6,476 bases of DNA from a virus (Duplodnaviria > Heunggongvirae > Uroviricota > Caudoviricetes), in IMG/VR virus record IMGVR_UViG_2663763280_000003, positions 1 to 6,476 of that record. One strand, given 5' to 3'. Positions within the stretch are counted from its first letter, which is position 1. Every line of letters starts with the position of its first letter. The notes below the pieces were generated by a model. The model did no database searches and was not told the origin of the DNA. It was given only the letters and a program-made list of their open reading frames with translations. A program made the position numbers and the translations under genes. This document shows, piece after piece, positions 1 to 6,476 of the stretch.

Positions 1-138
1 CATTACGGTATTCCGGCCACGCTGCGGGGCATGGTGAACAACGACTTGAAGGCCACGGCTGACGCCGTGTTGTCCCTGGTGAAAGACGGCGCAACTGATG
101 GTGTTCAGATCGACCCGACGCTGTTTTCATCATCTTGA
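1..138 (+). CDS. 3' end of an ORF entering from upstream of the window (about 45 codons, ...DPTLFSSS*); product unknown
   Basis: Frame 1 is open from the window edge to TGA at 136-138; co-directional with the downstream prophage genes. No recognisable motif. Confidence 0.3.
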
Positions 139-182
139 TGAGATGATGCCTGTTATTTATACCCCAACCGTCGGCGCAGCCT

Positions 183-425
183 GTGAGCGTTTTTCTGAGA
201 TCTACCGCCGTTCACGCGGCGTGTTTATCTCTTACCAGAACCGGCACAATACAAGTTAACCGCTGGTTCAAAGATCACTACGGAGTGCCCGTCAGAGTCA
301 TTCGTTGGGAGCCGGAAACACAACGAGTTATCTACCTCCGCGAAGGCTATGAGCATGAGTGCTTCAGCCCGCTCGAACAGTTTCGTCGTAAATTCAGGGA
401 AATAGAGGTCGGTCATGAGCACTAA
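183..425 (+). CDS. hypothetical small protein (80 codons, GTG start, no in-frame ATG)
   Basis: ORF from the six-frame track. Its TAA stop (423-425) overlaps the ATG (415) of the downstream replication gene, a typical phage operon arrangement. No clear Shine-Dalgarno upstream of the GTG; a competing antisense ORF exists at 225-422. Confidence 0.35.
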
Positions 426-1356
426 ATTAACCGGCTATGTATGGGATGGTTGCGCTGCATCAGGCATGAAATTATCCAGCGTGGCAATTATGGCCCGCCT
501 GGCTGATTTCAGTAATGACGAAGGTGTGTGCTGGCCATCAATTGAAACTATTGCCCGTCAGATTGGCGCGGGGATGAGTACCGTCAGGACGGCTATCGCA
601 CGGCTGGAAGCAGAAGGCTGGTTAACGCGTAAGGCGCGTCGCCAGGGTAACCGCAATGCGTCGAATGTTTATCAGCTTAACGTTGCGAAGCTTCAGGCAG
701 CGGCATTTTCTCAACTGCCAGATTCTGACCCGTCAAAATCTGACGCATCAAAATCTGACCCGTCAAAATTTGATGCGTCGAAATCTGGCAAAAAAGCGGG
801 TTTTCACCCGTCAGAATCTGGCGGGGATCCGTCAGTAAAATCAAAACATGATCCGTCAGATAAAAAACCTTCTCGTCCGGACGCTTCGCAACCGGACACG
901 CAGACGGATGAACAGGATTTTTTAACTCGCCATCCTGATGCGGTTGTATTCAGCCCTAAAAAGCGCCAGTGGGGAACGCAGGATGATTTGACCTGCGCAC
1001 AGTGGCTCTGGAAAAAAATCATCGCCCTGTACGAGCAAGCCGCCGAATGTGACGGCGAGGTGGTTCGTCCCAAAGAACCGAACTGGACAGCCTGGGCAAA
1101 CGAAATTCGCCTGATGTGTGTGCAGGATGGTCGTACTCACAAACAAATCTGCGAGATGTACAGCCGCGTCAGCCGCGATCCGTTCTGGTGCCGTAACGTG
1201 CTCAGCCCGTCGAAGTTGCGGGAAAAATGGGATGAGCTTTCCCTGCGCTTATCACCGTCCGTCAGCACGTACACCGAAAAACGCGAAGACCCGTACTTCA
1301 AATCCAGTTACGACAACGTGGACTACAGCCAGATCCCGGCAGGATTCAGGGGGTGA
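415..1356 (+). CDS. phage replication initiation protein: N-terminal helix-turn-helix DNA-binding domain, repetitive SDPSK linker, DnaT-like C-terminal domain
   Basis: 313-aa ORF with GAGG Shine-Dalgarno before the ATG. The N-terminal segment (…IETIARQIGAGMSTVRTAIARLEAEGWL…) is HTH-like. The C-terminus …YSQIPAGFRG closely resembles the C-terminus of E. coli primosomal protein DnaT (…SQIPPGFRG), recalled from memory. The central linker is encoded by tandem 15-bp repeats. Confidence 0.85.
   Translation: MSTKLTGYVWDGCAASGMKLSSVAIMARLADFSNDEGVCWPSIETIARQIGAGMSTVRTAIARLEAEGWLTRKARRQGNRNASNVYQLNVAKLQAAAFSQLPDSDPSKSDASKSDPSKFDASKSGKKAGFHPSESGGDPSVKSKHDPSDKKPSRPDASQPDTQTDEQDFLTRHPDAVVFSPKKRQWGTQDDLTCAQWLWKKIIALYEQAAECDGEVVRPKEPNWTAWANEIRLMCVQDGRTHKQICEMYSRVSRDPFWCRNVLSPSKLREKWDELSLRLSPSVSTYTEKREDPYFKSSYDNVDYSQIPAGFRG
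724..869. repeat. iteron-like array inside the replication gene (candidate phage origin): four tandem 15-bp units plus three dispersed CCGTCAG core copies, followed by an A-rich tract
   Basis: Tandem units tctgacccgtcaaaa (724-738), tctgacgcatcaaaa (739-753), tctgacccgtcaaaa (754-768), tttgatgcgtcgaaa (769-783). Further core copies ccgtcagaatctg (808-820), ccgtcagtaaaatc (829-842) and ccgtcagataaaaaacc (853-869). Analogous to lambda ori lying within gene O. Confidence 0.55.
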
Positions 1357-1358
1357 TC

Positions 1359-1655
1359 ATGAGTCTTTTGAATGAAGTTCAGAAATTCATTGAAGCCCAT
1401 CCGGGATGTACTTCCGGAGACATTGCGGATGCTTTTGCAGGTTACTCACGGCAGCGCGTTCTGCAGTCAGCAAGCAAGTTACGTCAGAGTGGGCGTGTGG
1501 CTCACCGTTGTGAAGGAGATACACGCAGACATTTCCCGCGCCTGACTGAGAGAGCGCAGGAACCGGAACCACAACCAGTTCGAGAAACCAGACCTGTGCG
1601 CAATTTCTATGTCGGCACTAACGATCCACGGGTGATTTTGTGCCTGACCCGCTAG
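1359..1655 (+). CDS. hypothetical small phage protein, possibly a winged-helix DNA-binding protein
   Basis: ATG at 1359 preceded by a GGGGG Shine-Dalgarno-like run (1349-1353); an alternative GTG at 1353 overlaps the upstream TGA (1354-1356). Ends at TAG 1653-1655. The N-terminal segment (…CTSGDIADAFAGYSRQRVLQSASKLRQSGRV…) is HTH-like. Confidence 0.55.
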   Translation: MSLLNEVQKFIEAHPGCTSGDIADAFAGYSRQRVLQSASKLRQSGRVAHRCEGDTRRHFPRLTERAQEPEPQPVRETRPVRNFYVGTNDPRVILCLTR

Positions 1656-1706
1656 GCTGAAGAACTGGAGTCCAGGGGCTTATACCGTCGTGCTGCAACC
1701 GTGTGG

Positions 1707-1847
1707 ATGGCGGTATTCCGTGAAAGCCACTCCCAGCCAGAACGAAACAATTTTCTGGCGCGTCGTGAGCAGTGCTTACAGAAAAGCAGCAAGCGCGCTG
1801 CATCGGGTGAAGAGTGGTATCTGTCAGGGAATTACGTGGGGGCTTAA
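1707..1847 (+). CDS. possible small ORF (46 codons from ATG 1707), or the downstream part of the preceding gene interrupted by an in-frame TAG
   Basis: The frame stays open from directly after TAG 1653-1655 through to TAA 1845-1847, which overlaps the Dam ATG (1847) as TAATG. No obvious Shine-Dalgarno before ATG 1707. Too short to be listed in the ORF track. Confidence 0.25.
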   Translation: MAVFRESHSQPERNNFLARREQCLQKSSKRAASGEEWYLSGNYVGA

Positions 1848-2500
1848 TGAGTAATAAATATTGTCAGGCACTGGTGGAACTGCGGAACAAACCAGCCCAT
1901 GAACTGAAGGAAGTGGGCGATCAGTGGCGCACGCCGGACAACATTTTCTGGGGAATTAACACCCTGTTTGGCCCGTTTGTTCTGGATCTGTTCACTGACG
2001 GTGATAACGCCAAATGTGCCGCGTATTACACGGCGGAAGACAACGCGCTGGCGCATGACTGGTCAGAACGCCTTGCGGAGCTTAAAGGTGCTGCCTTTGG
2101 TAATCCCCCATACAGCCGCGCCAGTCAGCATGAGGGGCAATACATCACCGGCATGCGTTACATCATGAAACATGCCAGTGCCATGCGTGATAAAGGCGGG
2201 CGCTATGTTTTCCTGATCAAAGCTGCCACCAGTGAAGTGTGGTGGCCGGAAGATGCGGACCATATTGCTTTTATTCGCGGGCGTATTGGTTTTGAACTGC
2301 CTGCCTGGTTTATCCCGAAGGACGAGAAGCAGGTGCCGACAGGTGCTTTCTTCGCTGGTGCTATTGCTGTTTTCGACAAGACCTGGAAGGGACCGGCAAT
2401 CAGCTACATCGGGCGCGATGAACTTGAGGCATGTGGTGAGGCGTTTCTGGTGCAGGTTCGCCAGCAGGCGGAAAAACTGGTCAGGGAGATGGCGGCATGA
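1847..2500 (+). CDS. phage-type DNA N6-adenine methyltransferase (Dam family), orphan
   Basis: NPPY catalytic motif in …AAFGNPPYSRA…; the N-terminal …WRTPDNIF… is typical of phage Dam methylases. ATG 1847 is preceded by a GGGGG run; an upstream in-frame GTG at 1814 is an alternative start. No restriction endonuclease gene nearby. Confidence 0.85.
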   Translation: MSNKYCQALVELRNKPAHELKEVGDQWRTPDNIFWGINTLFGPFVLDLFTDGDNAKCAAYYTAEDNALAHDWSERLAELKGAAFGNPPYSRASQHEGQYITGMRYIMKHASAMRDKGGRYVFLIKAATSEVWWPEDADHIAFIRGRIGFELPAWFIPKDEKQVPTGAFFAGAIAVFDKTWKGPAISYIGRDELEACGEAFLVQVRQQAEKLVREMAA

Positions 2501-2823
2501 CGACGTTAACTCAATGCCAGCAGCAGGTGCTGGATATGCTGATTTCTTACCAGCAAGAACGTGGCTTCCCGCCAACTAATCAGGAGGTGGCAACCATGCT
2601 GGGATACCGTTCAGTGAATGCAGCGGTAGAGCATCTTCGCGCACTGGAGAAAAAAGGCGTCATCACGATAAAGCGTGGCGTGGCCCGGGGGATAACGCTT
2701 CATACCGCGGTGAAGGACGACGACAGCGAGGCGGTCGGGATTATCCGCGCACTGCTTGCCGGTGAGGAAAACGGCAGGCTGCGTGCAGCCCACTGGTTAC
2801 ATGAGAGGGGGCTGAAAGTATGA
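2497..2823 (+). CDS. LexA N-terminal DNA-binding-domain-like protein (108 aa) lacking the S24 peptidase domain
   Basis: MTTLTQCQQQVLDMLISYQQERGFPPTNQEVATMLGYRSVNAAVEHLRALEKKGVITIKRGVARGITL aligns residue-by-residue with E. coli LexA 1-70 (MKALTARQQEVFDLI…[36 protein letters not shown]…SRGIRL), recalled from memory. The start ATGA overlaps the Dam stop and the stop overlaps the rusA ATG. Confidence 0.75.
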   Translation: MTTLTQCQQQVLDMLISYQQERGFPPTNQEVATMLGYRSVNAAVEHLRALEKKGVITIKRGVARGITLHTAVKDDDSEAVGIIRALLAGEENGRLRAAHWLHERGLKV

Positions 2824-3209
2824 AGCTGATCCTGCCGTTTCCCCCCAGCGTGAACACGTACTGGCGACACCCCAACAAAGGGGCTTTTGCAGGTAAGAGC
2901 CTGATAAGCGCGGCGGGGCGTAAATTCCAGGGCGCGGCGTGTGCCGCCATCATTGAGCAGTTACGCCGTCTGCCGAAACCAACGTCGGCACCAGCTTCAG
3001 TGGAGATCGTGTTGTTTCCTCCGGATAACCGGATCCGCGATCTGGACAACTATAACAAGGCGCTGTTTGACGCCCTGACCCACGCGGGTGTGTGGGAAGA
3101 CGACAGTCAGGTGAAAAGAATGCTGGTGGAGTGGGGACCGGTTATCCCGGAAGGGAAGGTCGAGATCACTATCAGTAAGTACGAGAAACCGGCGGGTGCA
3201 GCCGCCTGA
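2820..3209 (+). CDS. rusA: RusA-family Holliday junction resolvase (crossover junction endodeoxyribonuclease)
   Basis: LPFPPSVNTYWRH and DLDNYNKALFDALTHAGVWEDDSQV correspond to the RusA motifs LPWPPSNNRYYRH and [31 protein letters not shown] Shine-Dalgarno upstream; 129 aa. Confidence 0.9.
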   Translation: MKLILPFPPSVNTYWRHPNKGAFAGKSLISAAGRKFQGAACAAIIEQLRRLPKPTSAPASVEIVLFPPDNRIRDLDNYNKALFDALTHAGVWEDDSQVKRMLVEWGPVIPEGKVEITISKYEKPAGAAA

Positions 3210-3228
3210 TTAAGAGGAGAAACGAAGT

Positions 3229-4026
3229 ATGAATAATCTGATGGTCATTGATGGTATTGAAGTTCGTCGTGATGCTTATGGTCGTTACAGCCTGAACGAT
3301 CTGCACAGGGCTGCCGGTTCTCTGGATAAGCATAAGCCTGCATTCTGGCTCCGCAATGAGCAAACTGAACGTTTAATAAGCGAGTTGCAGATTTGCAACT
3401 CGGTCAATATAGAGCCAGTTAACGTTATTCGTGGCGGAAATAACCAGGGGACGTATGTCTGCAAAGAACTGGTGTATGCCTATGCAATGTGGATCAGCCC
3501 GTCATTCCATCTGAAGGTGATCCGTACTTTCGACATGGTAACCAGCGCACCTGAAAAATTATCCGGACAGGCTGCTGACAAGATGCAGGCTGGCGTGATT
3601 CTGCTGGACTTTATGCGCCGGGAGTTAAATCTGTCTAACTTTTCAGTGCTTGGAGCCTGTCAGAAACTTCAGGAGGCTGTTGGCTTACCGAATCTGGCAC
3701 CGCGCTATGCCATTGATGCTCCTGCTGACGCGCCTGATGGCTCAAGCCGCCCCACGCTGTCACTGAGTGCATTGCTGAAGCAGTATGGTATCCGCCTGAC
3801 AGCTAATCAGGCATATCACCAGATGGTGAAGCTGGGGATCGTCGAGCAGCGCGAACGATACAGCCGTACCGCGATTAACAACATCAAAAAATTCTGGTCG
3901 CTGACGGCGAAAGGCTGCATGTTCGGCAAGAACATTACCAGTCCTGCAAATCCGCGCGAGACGCAGCCGCATTTCTTCGAATCCCGATTCCCTGAGCTGT
4001 TAAAGCTGCTCGATACCGTTCATTGA
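3229..4026 (+). CDS. KilA-N domain protein (phage antirepressor-like; C-terminal half uncharacterised)
   Basis: Strong Shine-Dalgarno (AAGAGGAGA) before the ATG. The N-terminal ~110 aa (…YSLNDLHRAAG…PAFWLRNEQTERLISEL…GTYVCKELVYAYAMWISPSFHLKVIRTFD) matches the KilA-N/APSES-type fold pattern. Confidence 0.8.
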   Translation: MNNLMVIDGIEVRRDAYGRYSLNDLHRAAGSLDKHKPAFWLRNEQTERLISELQICNSVNIEPVNVIRGGNNQGTYVCKELVYAYAMWISPSFHLKVIRTFDMVTSAPEKLSGQAADKMQAGVILLDFMRRELNLSNFSVLGACQKLQEAVGLPNLAPRYAIDAPADAPDGSSRPTLSLSALLKQYGIRLTANQAYHQMVKLGIVEQRERYSRTAINNIKKFWSLTAKGCMFGKNITSPANPRETQPHFFESRFPELLKLLDTVH

Positions 4027-4027
4027 G

Positions 4028-4285
4028 GTGACCGTGAGAGCACTACTGACCCCTGAAATTGCCCCGCGTATGGGGATCGTATTGTTCAGACCAGGTTCAG
4101 AGCTGATGCCCCTGTTTATGCAGGGGCGTGTACTGCTGGAGCCTGAGCCGGAACGTTATTCATCTTTCGCCAGTGGTGCCGTTCCCGCGGCATCACAACC
4201 GCTGGCGGATGATCCTGCTGTTCGGGCCGTGTTCCGCAATGAGGCAGTGATCCGTCGTGCTGGTGGCGTGGAATGTCTTGAAAGC
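4028..4285 (+). CDS. hypothetical protein, 5' portion only; reading frame runs into the N-containing breakpoint
   Basis: GTG starts at 4028/4034 immediately after the KilA-N stop, after a GAGGTGA motif. The frame is open to the N run; no recognisable motif. Confidence 0.35.
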
Positions 4286-4295
4286 NNNNTACGNN
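4286..4295. other. ambiguous bases (nnnntacgnn) coinciding with a sequence breakpoint
   Basis: N characters are directly visible. Sequence to the left is the phage ORF; sequence to the right is the gltX 5' end on the opposite strand. Confidence 0.9.
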
Positions 4296-4353
4296 CGCCG
4301 CCAACGTGCAGATAGCCTGTTGGGCTTGGCGCGAAGCGAGTTTTGATTTTCAT
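4286..4353 (-). pseudogene. gltX: 5' fragment of glutamyl-tRNA synthetase gene (first ~20 codons only; truncated at the breakpoint)
   Basis: The minus strand from the ATG (complement of 4351-4353) encodes MKIKTRFAPSPTGYLHVGG, the GltX N-terminus including the class I HIGH-type motif region. Translation beyond the Ns no longer resembles GltX. Confidence 0.8.
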
Positions 4354-4566
4354 GAAATGGCCTTACGTTTAGAAAGATGCCGACAACCGGCAAATCCTGG
4401 AAAAATTGAGTGGGCGATATTCTATCACTCCCGCCTGATTCCTCAATGTAGTTCGGGTTTCTACCTTACGCATTATTGTTTTCGTTGACAAATTGCGCAA
4501 CACGGTCTGTTTTGCGATCATCTTGCTTAAATTTACGACGAACGAACAATTTCTTTAGAAAATGCG

Positions 4567-4594
4567 TTGACTCATTTTGAACTCTCCCTATAAT
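4567..4594 (+). promoter_or_regulatory. sigma70 promoter of the tRNA operon (-35 TTGACT 4567-4572, 16-bp spacer, -10 TATAAT 4589-4594), with an AT-rich upstream region
   Basis: Near-consensus hexamers about 18 bp upstream of the first tRNA. The AT-rich upstream tract (4500-4565) is typical of stable-RNA promoter UP/Fis regions. Confidence 0.6.
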
Positions 4595-4611
4595 GCGACT
4601 CCACACAGCGG

Positions 4612-4687
4612 GGGTGATTAGCTCAGCTGGGAGAGCACCTCCCTTACAAGGAGGGGGTCGGCGGTTCGATCCCGTCATCACCCACCA
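4612..4687 (+). tRNA. valU: tRNA-Val (anticodon UAC)
   Basis: 76-nt sequence GGGTGATTAGCTCAGCTGGGAGAGCACCTCCCTTACAAGGAGGGGGTCGGCGGTTCGATCCCGTCATCACCCACCA with cloverleaf, TAC anticodon in the CTTACAA loop and encoded CCA. Confidence 0.95.
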
Positions 4688-4731
4688 ACTACTTTATGTA
4701 GTCTCCGCCGTGTAGCAAGAAATTGAGAAGT

Positions 4732-4807
4732 GGGTGATTAGCTCAGCTGGGAGAGCACCTCCCTTACAAGGAGGGGGTCGGCGGTTCGATCCCGTCATCA
4801 CCCACCA
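4732..4807 (+). tRNA. valX: tRNA-Val (anticodon UAC), second identical copy
   Basis: Identical 76-nt sequence to 4612-4687. Confidence 0.95.
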
Positions 4808-4853
4808 CTTTCTCGCCAGCTAAATTTCTTGTAAAAATGTGAAGTACCGAAGT

Positions 4854-4929
4854 GGGTGATTAGCTCAGCTGGGAGAGCACCTCCCTTACAAGGAGGGGGT
4901 CGGCGGTTCGATCCCGTCATCACCCACCA
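4854..4929 (+). tRNA. valY: tRNA-Val (anticodon UAC), third identical copy
   Basis: Identical 76-nt sequence to 4612-4687. Confidence 0.95.
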
Positions 4930-4933
4930 CTTC

Positions 4934-5009
4934 GGGTCGTTAGCTCAGTTGGTAGAGCAGTTGACTTTTAATCAATTGGTCGCAGGTTCGAATCCTGCAC
5001 GACCCACCA
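4934..5009 (+). tRNA. lysV: tRNA-Lys (anticodon UUU)
   Basis: GGGTCGTTAGCTCAGTTGGTAGAGCAGTTGACTTTTAATCAATTGGTCGCAGGTTCGAATCCTGCACGACCCACCA; anticodon loop CTTTTAA, encoded CCA; lies 4 nt after the third tRNA-Val. Confidence 0.95.
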
Positions 5010-5013
5010 ATGT

Positions 5014-5041
5014 AAAAAAGCGCCCTAAAGGCGCTTTTTTG
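5014..5041 (+). terminator. rho-independent terminator of the tRNA operon
   Basis: AAAAAAGCGCC-CTAAA-GGCGCTTTTTTG: GC stem, 5-nt loop, T-run. Confidence 0.8.
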
Positions 5042-5147
5042 CTATCTGCGATACTCAAAGATTCGAAGCTGCCGCAGGTTCGAGTTGAGCGCAGCGAAAC
5101 AACGGAGCCGCTCGCGGCGACGGCCCGAAGGGCGAGCGAAGCGAGTC

Positions 5148-5208
5148 ATCCTGCACGACCCACCAATGTAAAAAAGCGCCCTAAAGGCGCTTTTTTGCTA
5201 TCTGCGAT
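5148..5208. repeat. 61-bp direct repeat of 4992-5052 (tRNA-Lys 3' end plus terminator); second copy of a partial tRNA-Lys whose T-arm is interrupted by ~64 bp
   Basis: atcctgcacgacccaccaatgtaaaaaagcgccctaaaggcgcttttttgctatctgcgat occurs at both positions. Upstream of the second copy, cgcaggttcga (5073-5083) resembles the tRNA-Lys T-arm, followed by a GC-rich insert. Confidence 0.8.
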
Positions 5209-5314
5209 TTGCGAAATTGCCTGATGCGCTTCACTTAGCAGACGACTATTTCCGGCAATTCCTGTCTCCTCACCTACTGTGTCAATGCAGCCAACAGCTT
5301 AACCATCGCGGGCG

Positions 5315-5630
5315 TCACCTGCTGTGTTTCCAGTAGCGCCACTGCCAGCGGCCCGCGTCAGGGAGAAAATCATTCGCCAGCCCATCCATATGCAGCACGA
5401 AATCGCCCAGTTCATTTTCATGCGCCTGCAAAATGGCCTGCAAACGTCCGTCAACACCACGTTGGGTGACTTTTACACCCGCTAAAGGCCAGCGGATTTC
5501 ATCGATGTCCAGCGAATCGATGACTCTTCCCTTTGAACGAAGTAACGCGCCTGGCTCAAAGGTCAGCGTTGGGTCAGACAGACTTCCACTTAGCTGCGCA
5601 GGAACGACGAACGCAAACTGAATGGTCATT
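5315..5630 (-). CDS. unidentified coding fragment (about 105 codons, no recognisable N-terminus); possibly the 3' part of the convergent neighbour gene
   Basis: Long open frame on the minus strand. In E. coli K-12 the gene after lysV is xapR on the opposite strand, but I cannot confirm identity from sequence. A different minus frame ends …QQVTPAMVKLLAALTQ* at 5274, hinting at a frameshift or another junction. Confidence 0.3.
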
Positions 5631-5682
5631 ACGCCGTTTATTACGTGCTGTCGATGGAGAAGGGCACCAAGTGTTGGGTAAC

Positions 5683-5884
5683 GGTTCGCGTCCCGATGCC
5701 GTTGCTGCAACACAGCAGGGCGTTTTTAGTTTCCTCACCAAGCCTGTCGACAAAGACGCGCTATATCAGGCAATTGACGATGCGCTGGAGCAATCCGCGC
5801 CAGCCACCGATGAACGCTGGCGCGAGGCAATTGTCACCCGCAGCCCGCTGATGCTGCGTTTGCTGGAACAGGCGCGGCTGGTGC
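5683..5884 (+). pseudogene. glrR: internal fragment of the sigma54-dependent response regulator GlrR (YfhA/QseF)
   Basis: Encodes …PDAVAATQQGVFSFLTKPVDKDALYQAIDDALEQSAPATDERWREAIVTRSPLMLRLLEQARLV, matching the GlrR receiver/linker region as I recall it. Identity is lost abruptly at ~5884. Confidence 0.7.
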
Positions 5885-6064
5885 TTCCGCCAGGTCGATA
5901 CCGGTGTAATGACCATAACCGAATTTACCCATCCATTCGGAGAGGCGATCGATCCCCATATCGTAGGCCACCTGATAGAAGAAGGTATCCGCAGATTCTT
6001 CCAGCGATCTTGTGACATTCAGACGCCCGTGGCCCCATTTTTTCCAGTCACGATAACGTTTTTC
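5885..6064 (-). pseudogene. mrdA: internal fragment of penicillin-binding protein 2 (MrdA)
   Basis: The minus strand encodes …[60 protein letters not shown], matching PBP2. Abuts the glrR fragment on one side and the gad fragment on the other. Confidence 0.7.
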
Positions 6065-6065
6065 C

Positions 6066-6224
6066 AAAGTACAGAACGCCTCTTACCAGGTTGCCGCTTA
6101 TCTGGCGGATGAAATCGCCAAACTGGGGCCGTATGAGTTCATCTGTACGGGTCGCCCGGACGAAGGCATCCCGGCGGTTTGCTTCAAACTGAAAGATGGT
6201 GAAGATCCGGGATACACCCTGTAC
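6066..6224 (+). pseudogene. gadB: internal fragment of glutamate decarboxylase (gadA/gadB; the paralogues are indistinguishable here)
   Basis: Encodes [53 protein letters not shown], matching the Gad C-terminal region. Identity is lost at 6225. Confidence 0.7.
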
Positions 6225-6226
6225 TT

Positions 6227-6367
6227 GTTTATGACATGCCTGGCACGACGCGTGACAGTATCTACATTCCAATGGAACGCGATGGACGTGAGTATGTGCT
6301 CATTGATACCGCTGGCGTACGTAAACGCGGCAAAATCACCGATGCTGTAGAGAAATTCTCCGTAATC
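6227..6367 (+). pseudogene. der: internal fragment of the GTPase Der (EngA)
   Basis: Encodes [47 protein letters not shown], matching a Der GTPase domain. It is in a different frame from the preceding gad fragment. Confidence 0.7.
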
Positions 6368-6376
6368 AGGTGAATA

Positions 6377-6388
6377 GATCGGAAGAGA
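6377..6388 (+). other. AGATCGGAAGAG, identical to the first 12 nt of Illumina TruSeq adapters, at a fragment junction
   Basis: Exact 12-mer lying between the der and envZ fragments. Only 12 nt match, so a chance occurrence cannot be excluded, but the context supports read-derived chimerism. Confidence 0.35.
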
Positions 6389-6389
6389 A

Positions 6390-6476
6390 AGTTCATTTGC
6401 CCGTACGTTATTGCTCATCGTCACCTTGCTGTTCTCCAGCCTGGTGACAACTTATCTGGTGGTGCTGAACTTCGCG
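6390..6476 (+). pseudogene. envZ: 5'-proximal fragment of the osmosensor histidine kinase EnvZ (N-terminal transmembrane segment)
   Basis: Encodes SSFARTLLLIVTLLFSSLVTTYLVVLNFA, matching the EnvZ N-terminus (…SFARTLLLIVTLLFASLVTTYLVVLNFA…). No start codon or promoter context is present. Confidence 0.7.

Follow-up and report, generated by a model that had tools for sequence, protein, structure and literature searches.

A probable lambda-like replication origin in the linker-coding region of a prophage initiator gene

A replication initiator gene that carries an array of short tandem repeats raises the question of what the repeats are for: do they specify a low-complexity segment of the protein, or are they a DNA element that happens to be translated? 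We asked this of 6,476 nucleotides of Caudoviricetes DNA (IMG/VR record IMGVR_UViG_2663763280_000003, positions 1 to 6,476; the window, hereafter), in which an open reading frame (ORF) at 415-1356 encodes an initiator resembling the O protein of phage lambda. A preliminary description had noted an iteron array followed by an A-rich tract at 724-869, inside this gene, and had read it as a candidate phage origin on the model of lambda. Our analysis makes it likely that a lambdoid prophage starts its replication at 717-873, an origin that lies within the stretch of its own initiator gene encoding a flexible linker. We infer from patterns in the sequence that the initiator would bind the repeats and that the origin would fire.

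Tandem Repeats Finder recovered the four tandem 15-bp units of the preliminary description as an array of 4.3 copies at 724-787 (period 15 bp, consensus TCTGACCCGTCAAAA, score 86); the same array scored higher, at 100, with a period of 30 bp. A repeat search found six in-register copies at 704-826 and showed that the array is also self-complementary. The hexamer CCGTCA begins at 730, 760, 808, 829 and 853, the last three being the further CCGTCAG-core copies already reported, and its 17 occurrences across the window (3.4 expected) were matched in none of 200 shuffles. Across the repeats the ORF, confirmed at 313 amino acids, translates as ...DSDPSKSDASKSDPSKFDASKSGKKAGFHPSESGGDPSVKSKHDPSDKK..., and the array itself reads SDPSK SDASK SDPSK FDASK in frame, the SDPSK/SDASK linker of the original account.

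Homologues were collected from phages, from 80 species-level prophage loci on genome contigs and from 80 near-identical viral contigs. A weight matrix built from the homologous genes has 12 conserved bases, TCA-A/G-AATCTGA-C, followed by 3 nearly free bases. The 15-bp period stands as first described, and the unit that looks functional is refined to an 11- to 12-bp quasi-palindrome, TCARAATCTGA(C), plus a free 3-bp spacer. The 11-bp core, TCARAATCTGA, is dyad-symmetric, and perfectly so in the form TCAGAATCTGA; because of this near-palindromy most sites score on the opposite strand too, as sites 0-3 and 5 do here. A different candidate site, the palindrome TGAC-NN-GTCA, was dropped, its G before TCA belonging to the free spacer codon and occurring in about half of the units. 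Matrix matches in the whole window are restricted to 717-852, where six copies (718-821) start at 718, 733, 748, 763, 778 and 811 and a weak one at 841. The six sites, listed without a strand of their own, are:

718-728: site 0, CCAGATTCTGA, a weakened copy (weight-matrix score 12.5)
From 733: site 1, TCAAAATCTGA (Tandem Repeats Finder; weight-matrix score 22.0; scores on the minus strand)
From 748: site 2, TCAAAATCTGA (Tandem Repeats Finder; weight-matrix score 22.0; scores on the minus strand)
From 763: site 3, TCAAAATTTGA (Tandem Repeats Finder; weight-matrix score 16.9; scores on the minus strand)
From 778: site 4, TCGAAATCTGG (Tandem Repeats Finder; weight-matrix score 13.3); sites 1-4 occupy 733-788
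811-821: site 5, TCAGAATCTGG, a near-perfect 11-bp palindrome 33 bp past site 4 (weight-matrix score 17.2)

Sites 1-4 follow one another at 15 bp, start to start, with the free spacer behind each, and site 5 sits within TTTTSACCCGYCAGAATCTGG, a block almost invariant in 73 homologues. At 718, in site 0, the window has C where most near-identical prophages have T, which gives them TCAGATTCTGA; the substitution replaces Ser with Pro, and the window reads QLPDSD where most of those prophages read QLSDSD. The sites are strongly clustered. Among 76 homologous loci, 360 strong matrix matches fell inside rep (initiator) genes, in 70 kb of sequence, versus 5 outside them, in 179 kb. Neighbouring sites were 15 bp apart in 262 of approximately 350 intervals, and a homologue had between 3 and 10 sites, with a mode of 6. 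Within the 4-kb prophage segment of the window the matrix found no other cluster of these sites.

One account of such an array is that slippage generated a low-complexity protein linker and that the DNA has no function of its own; the peptide is indeed rich in Ser, Asp, Pro and Lys and variable in length, as disordered linkers are. We compared codon use in 76 homologous rep genes, no two identical and drawn from many genera of Enterobacterales, taking 216 in-frame S[DE]xS[KE] units chosen by amino-acid pattern alone and using the rest of the same genes as reference. The first Ser is encoded by TCT in 84% of units, compared with 8% of Ser elsewhere, and the second Ser, at position 4, by TCA in 85% compared with 14%. 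Lys is AAA in 99.5% of units (61% elsewhere) and Asp is GAC in 83% (48% elsewhere), while the middle codon of the unit varies freely. Position-specific synonymous codons are nearly fixed across genera. The preliminary description had named conservation of the amino acids only, among homologous genes, as the outcome that would speak against it; in these 76 genes the opposite holds, and the nucleotides are tighter than the peptide.

Third-codon positions point the same way. In 69 genes, used for both regions, they averaged 1.65 bits in 801-862 versus 0.64 bits, a value near saturation, in the amino-acid-conserved codons of the structured N-terminal domain (Mann-Whitney p = 6.7e-6). A GGN codon at 820-822, inside the conserved stretch, varies freely, and so unconstrained positions have had time enough to diverge, which argues against a recent sweep. 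This is purifying selection on nucleotides beyond what coding requires.

Some relatives separate the DNA from the peptide altogether. Amino acids in the units change (K/E, D/E/G, S/F/P) while the nucleotide core stays. Phage phiP27 repeats TTTTGACCCTTCAGAATCTGG in another reading frame, frame 2, so that this extra copy is translated as VLTLQNLD and not as FDPSDSG; there (L007, 1915-1975) the block TTTGACCCTTCAGAWTCTGG is duplicated, and a spacer of 5 nucleotides, usually 4, before GATCC restores the frame. A Tatumella relative has the peptide SEPQG/PKSGL/SESEG/LKTGP and yet keeps the 15-bp phasing and a YCRRAnnCTSR core. Even with N-terminal domains that are 100% identical, prophages differ in their number of tandem units (3 to 6), always by steps of 15 bp, which is the comparison of copy number among homologous rep genes that had been proposed at the outset. 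Together these comparisons show what selection maintains: the DNA sequence and not the peptide. With synonymous codons nearly fixed and the same block read in two frames, a linker without a DNA function is highly improbable.

The Tatumella array is also expanded: in Tatumella saanichensis (L084, 1830-2090), a distant relative with a quite different peptide, a 60-bp super-unit is repeated more than four times, each with four 15-bp sub-sites, for about 17 phased sites.

Constraint on nucleotides could also arise from an overlapping gene, or from a hairpin in mRNA or single-stranded DNA. Alternative-frame ORFs are present (plus strand, 656-838; minus strand, 677-844), and the strand folds far better than its shuffles (-31.7 kcal/mol, z = -6.1). 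The +1 ORF, however, has a start codon that hangs on a synonymous AAT/AAC choice and is missing in about half of the homologues; most loci have stops in all alternative frames, and any overlapping peptide would change with the free middle codon of the unit. As for a hairpin, any tandem array of palindromic sites will be able to fold, and the units show conservation of sequence rather than covariation. The long hairpin lies at 716-790, whereas the most invariant block, 826-862, gives only two short stems. Rfam, scanned over the whole window, matched four tRNAs and an RtT element and nothing in 700-900. We regard either form of this explanation as exceedingly improbable. At 797-810 the minus strand could form a terminator-like hairpin, which was set aside because homologues do not keep it.

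The initiator gene, its domains and a junction within it are:

415-1356, plus strand: replication initiator gene, lambda-O-like, 313 amino acids, of an SfII/SfIV/CPS-53-type lambdoid prophage (ORF list, PHROG 391, DNA identity to phage O genes)
415-708, plus strand: N-terminal winged-helix/helix-turn-helix (HTH) domain, presumed to bind the iterons (Pfam HTH_36 at amino acids 23-70, nucleotides 481-624, E 4.3e-11)
952-1245, plus strand: C-terminal domain homologous to that of lambda O (BLASTP)
860-869, no strand: mosaic junction, with sequence approximately 97% identical to phage mEp460_4F5 downstream and different upstream

PHROG 391, 'replication initiation O-like', is matched from end to end (amino acids 1-313, E 4.9e-135), and the gene is 98-99.8% identical in DNA to genes labelled replication protein O in the phages SfII and SfIV of Shigella, Kati and vB_EcoM-689R6; among SfII, SfIV and several E. 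coli phages at this level of identity the label is either replication protein O or primosomal protein. By BLASTP, amino acids 70-277 align with lambda O 78-270 at 31% identity (E 3e-26), most strongly over 184-277. The C-terminal domain of lambda O binds P in lambda. The N-terminal domain, in contrast, had no significant BLASTP similarity to lambda O, and the Pfam scan gave no Phage_rep_O match in the initiator; besides HTH_36 it had weaker Pfam matches to GntR, MarR, DnaD_N and RP-C. A sequence search of solved structures returned only marginal MarR/PaaX winged-helix matches (E about 0.04), and NCBIfam gave nothing useful for this protein. The specificity module of the initiator thus lies outside the lambda O N-domain family, though the origin would work like lambda ori. 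Gene identity and genomic context both fit an initiator.

The N-terminal domain and the repeats are inherited as one module. The domain is kept at 58-100% identity in more than 80 prophages, and the repeat array always comes next. Domain and repeats together are fused to at least four kinds of C-terminal domain, unrelated to one another: most loci have a TIGR02220/DnaD-like type, 14 loci, the window among them, a lambda-O-type, and others a phiP27-type or an L082-type, classes that we assigned by motif, single-linkage BLAST clustering having merged nearly everything. Phage mEp460_4F5 gives the reciprocal case. It shares approximately 97% DNA identity with the window from about 866 to the stop codon, and upstream of that point has another N-terminal domain and its own 23-bp repeats; the junction falls just past the repeats and the A-rich run. 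A swap of the N-terminal domain together with the repeats is the pattern expected if that domain recognises the repeats.

Downstream of the array lies a second class of repeats, within a block conserved at the nucleotide level:

801-862, no strand: nucleotide-invariant block, TTTTCACCCGTCAGAATCTGG-C-GGGGATCCGTCAGTAAAATCAAAACATGATCCGTCAGATA (alignment of 73 loci)
826-838, no strand: second-class repeat B1, GATCCGTCAGTAA, with a Dam site GATC at 826 (repeat search)
850-862, no strand: second-class repeat B2, GATCCGTCAGATA, with a Dam site GATC at 850 (repeat search), 24 bp past B1
834-873, no strand: A/T-rich low-stability tract with an A-rich top strand, a candidate DNA-unwinding element (nearest-neighbour free energy, dG)

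The near-invariant sequence TTTTSACCCGYCAGAATCTGG-n-GGGGATCCGTCAGTAAaTTCAA-n5-GATCCAtCAG extends from Escherichia to Providencia, Proteus, Rahnella, Yersinia and Pantoea. All 69 loci compared have the GAT codon of B1, and 67 of the 69 have CCG. Both GATC sites (826-829 and 850-853 in the window) occur in the block in 60 of 73 loci, and a Pectobacterium relative (L082) has amplified the 24-bp B unit to at least three copies. In at least 35 of the 76 loci a gene for a Dam-type methylase starts less than 500 nucleotides downstream of rep, a lower bound set by the limited downstream sequence per locus. We note a possible link between methylation and origin firing from the GATC sites and the nearby Dam-type gene.

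These features could suggest that the DNA is recognised by another protein, or serves recombination or packaging; candidates would be host DnaA, IHF, Fis or SeqA (at GATC), or the PerC-family or LexA-like regulators encoded downstream. The second-class repeats (block B, 826-862) are unlike the 15-bp sites and carry two conserved GATC, and the frequent methylase neighbour also speaks for it. No DnaA box with at most one mismatch, however, occurs in 250-1500. The array travels with the N-terminal domain of the initiator while downstream genes differ among relatives (a methylase straight after rep in phiNP and LLS, a DnaC-like loader in phiP27, PerC in the window), and mEp460_4F5 exchanges N-terminal domain and repeats together. 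We consider recognition by a different protein, or another use of the DNA, very unlikely.

An origin would be expected to contain DNA that opens easily, and the preliminary description had pointed to an A-rich tract after the repeats. We found the A-rich run ATAAAAAA at 860-867, and 834-873, which overlaps B1 and B2, is the least stable 40-mer of the rep ORF (dG -47.0 kcal/mol, 70% A+T), about three standard deviations above the mean for 40-mers of the prophage part (-57.1 kcal/mol, standard deviation 3.3). Lambda served as positive control: there the least stable 40-mer of gene O lies directly after iteron 4 (dG -43.0 kcal/mol, 78% A+T). All the elements first placed at 724-869 are present, the feature as a whole being slightly wider at about 717-873.

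An alternative is that the initiator binds the sites mainly for regulation, with the true unwinding and start site elsewhere. Its roles could be autorepression or a transcription roadblock in the early operon, titration or handcuffing, or exclusion of related phages. Nucleotide constraint and co-inheritance with the N-terminal domain demonstrate a cis-acting array of sites, not a replication start; the A/T-rich tract is modest; and cloned lambda ori fragments are known to interfere with phage growth (PMC3349717, PMC4488673). On the other hand, every characterised lambdoid repeat array in an O/18 gene is an origin, the least stable segment of the gene follows the array directly, as in lambda, and the 4-kb prophage segment offers no second cluster of sites as an alternative location. 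Regulation and origin function can, moreover, coexist. A mainly regulatory array is in our judgement unlikely.

For the origin reading, the following sequence of events is plausible. The winged-helix N-terminal domain of the initiator, probably as a dimer, would bind the 11-bp dyad sites TCARAATCTGA, six in number, five of them at 15-bp spacing and one 33 bp beyond. By analogy with lambda, the resulting nucleoprotein array would destabilise the adjoining conserved, A-rich, GATC-containing segment at 826-873, where the duplex would open. The C-terminal domain, lambda-O-like in this phage, would then recruit the host DnaB helicase. Because the repeats must be translated, they give the protein a linker of low complexity, rich in Ser, Asp, Pro and Lys, and it is the DNA sites that set the linker sequence rather than the reverse.

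The position of the gene agrees with this. In relatives, rep sits downstream of cro and a ymfL/cII-like gene. E. coli FDAARGOS_1284, whose rep differs from that of the window by one nucleotide (C718 in the window), has the order LexA-family repressor (minus strand), Cro, YmfL, DUF4222, rep, PerC, Dam, LexA-like, RusA, KilA-N, DUF968 and Q, which is the layout of a lambdoid early operon. The suggestion of a lambda-like origin in an initiator gene is in this way upheld by the O-like match, the homology of the C-terminal domain, the position in the operon and the position of the repeats. In the window, rep is followed by a gene for a PerC-family, yfdN-like regulator (1353-1850) and then by Dam (1814-2500). 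At 1653-1655 the CAG of FDAARGOS_1284 is replaced in this yfdN-like gene by the nonsense codon TAG, which shortens a protein of 164 amino acids to 100. PHROG matches and the gene order in the relative gave no lambda-P-like or DnaC-like helicase-loader gene in the early region of the prophage, and no helicase or loader gene adjoins the initiator in the window, as P does in lambda and gene 12 in P22; some relatives with other types of C-terminal domain, phiP27 among them, have a DnaC-like loader gene. A promoter scan of 251-1900 found no promoter-like site.

The remainder of the window places these genes in context. By DNA comparison, 251-4285 is prophage, and a matching prophage is present in many E. 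coli chromosomes. The window as a whole is a mosaic of E. coli segments that are not adjacent to each other, and no E. coli genome covers more than 62% of it in a single place. Window 1-250 resembles what we take, from the translation of the ORF at 98-259, to be a malic-enzyme gene, and is joined abruptly to the prophage at 251. At the other end a run of N at 4286-4295 joins the prophage to a chromosomal tRNA-cluster region, with unrelated gene fragments further on (4296-6476). Three tandem tRNA-Val(TAC) genes and one tRNA-Lys(TTT), then an RtT element, lie at 4612-5165, and these tandem tRNA genes explain a 122-bp tandem repeat reported by Tandem Repeats Finder.

Several points weigh against reading 717-873 as the origin. 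The searchable literature yielded no experiments on binding or origin activity for this iteron family. Lambda has the stronger A/T-rich tract (78% A+T and dG -43.0, compared with 70% and -47.0 here), and in the 4-kb prophage part the tract of the window is only the third least stable, the other two such segments lying at gene starts. A spacing of 15 bp is a non-integral number of helical turns (about two turns in lambda), so that O-some-like wrapping is not assured. With a helicase-loader gene absent after the initiator, the helicase-recruitment step is left unexplained. The homologues share phylogeny, and slippage can homogenise the units of a locus; unit counts thus overstate the number of independent observations. 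Finally, the window copy may belong to a decaying prophage, to judge from the mutated site 0 and the nonsense codon in the yfdN-like gene.

The loader question brought the end of the initiator into view:

1327-1353, plus strand: C-terminal tail SQIPAGFRG, the last 9 codons of the initiator, identical at 8 of 9 residues to the E. coli DnaT C-terminus SQIPPGFRG

A tail of the form [IVLA]P-x(1-3)-GF[RN] ends 47 of the 76 homologues, whatever the type of C-terminal domain (lambda-O-like or DnaD-like). Literature searches returned no described function for the C-terminal tail of DnaT. The tail may be a portable motif that recruits the host primosome or helicase, docking to a DnaT partner (PriB or the DnaB-DnaC complex). 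The GATC-bearing 24-bp repeats and the nearby Dam-type methylase could, by analogy with oriC and P1 oriR, couple opening to methylation state. Combining the two, this origin family might fire without a phage-encoded helicase loader, mimicking the host restart primosome and gated by adenine methylation, a proposal that we put forward as a speculation, and a rather doubtful one.

What the analysis provides is a sequence-level definition of an origin (consensus, spacing, conserved block and melting tract) for a widespread group of Enterobacterales prophages, one that takes in the CPS-53-type elements of E. coli as well as SfII and SfIV, phages that convert the serotype of Shigella. Literature searches on this iteron sequence, on the origins of SfII, SfIV and SfV and on yfdO/CPS-53 replication found no description of it. 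The definition can be used to annotate origins in these prophages and to design ori-titration or ori-cloning experiments. It is also a case of a cis-acting DNA element dictating the sequence of a protein linker, and it would be a mistake to see a protein motif in the Ser/Asp/Pro/Lys linker. In concept the origin stays within the lambda paradigm, unless a function emerges for the GATC repeats or the DnaT-like tail.

Among known systems, iteron plasmids are a natural comparison. Plasmids such as pPS10, F, R6K, P1 (oriR) and pSC101 have a winged-helix Rep protein and tandem direct repeats beside an A/T-rich unwinding element, and at P1 oriR, as at oriC, GATC sites lie in or beside the unwinding region. 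Their iterons are 17-22 bp long and lie outside the rep gene, usually with DnaA boxes. The window resembles them in its winged-helix initiator, tandem direct repeats, A/T-rich element and GATC sites. It differs in that its sites are 11-12 bp long and are translated, inside the ORF, and in having no DnaA box at up to one mismatch, and its arrangement is thus not of the plasmid type.

Phage mEp460_4F5 is alike in its C-terminal half (about 97% DNA identity) and in having repeats mid-gene; it differs in the repeats themselves, which are 23 bp long (CATCGGGTCAAAATG...) and are followed by three 12-bp repeats, and in its N-terminal domain. P22 and L have distantly related lambdoid initiators, which likewise have their own short repeats in the coding region: the gene 18 origin of P22 has four repeats of about 20 bp, and gene 18 of L has six imprecise 11-bp repeats, TGTCCAACGGA, from which, on sequence alone, the L origin was inferred (PMC8022706). 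Their repeat sequences and N-terminal domains are other than those of the window, and both P22 and L encode a DnaB-type helicase (gene 12) beside the initiator, which the window prophage does not.

The closest parallel is lambda, where ori, in gene O, consists of four 18-19-bp iterons and an AT-rich tract assembled into an O-some, with a six-iteron variant in the Stx phages 933W and P27. In both systems the origin lies mid-gene, between the DNA-binding N-terminal domain and the C-terminal domain (repeats at codons 101-150 of 313 here, 117-145 of 299 in lambda), the repeats are dyad-symmetric, the least stable A-rich segment is immediately downstream, the C-terminal domains are homologous (31%, E 3e-26) and the gene is placed after cro and cII. 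A change in iteron number lengthens the protein, as it does between lambda, with 4, and Stx phages, with 6 (PMC7466680). The differences are as clear. The N-terminal domain here is of another family, HTH_36; the site sequence is unrelated (TCARAATCTGA versus ATCCCTCAAAACGAGGGA); the sites, at 11-12 bp, are shorter and follow one another every 15 bp, compared with about 20-24 bp in lambda; a second, invariant, GATC-bearing class of 24-bp repeats is present; no P gene is next; and the AT-rich tract is weaker. Just past its AT-rich tract, lambda O (L009, 660-700) has GTCAGAGAATTCTGGCGAATCC, which resembles GTCAGAATCTGGCGGGGATCC at 808-831 of the window; the likeness could be chance or a remnant of shared linker or origin ancestry. 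Origins built of iterons and an AT-rich tract within O/18 genes are established for lambda, Stx phages, P22 and L, and each specificity type is recognised to have repeats of its own; lambda, P22 and L each have distinct iterons (PMC8022706). Against the literature searched, it is this particular family of sites that appears to be new.

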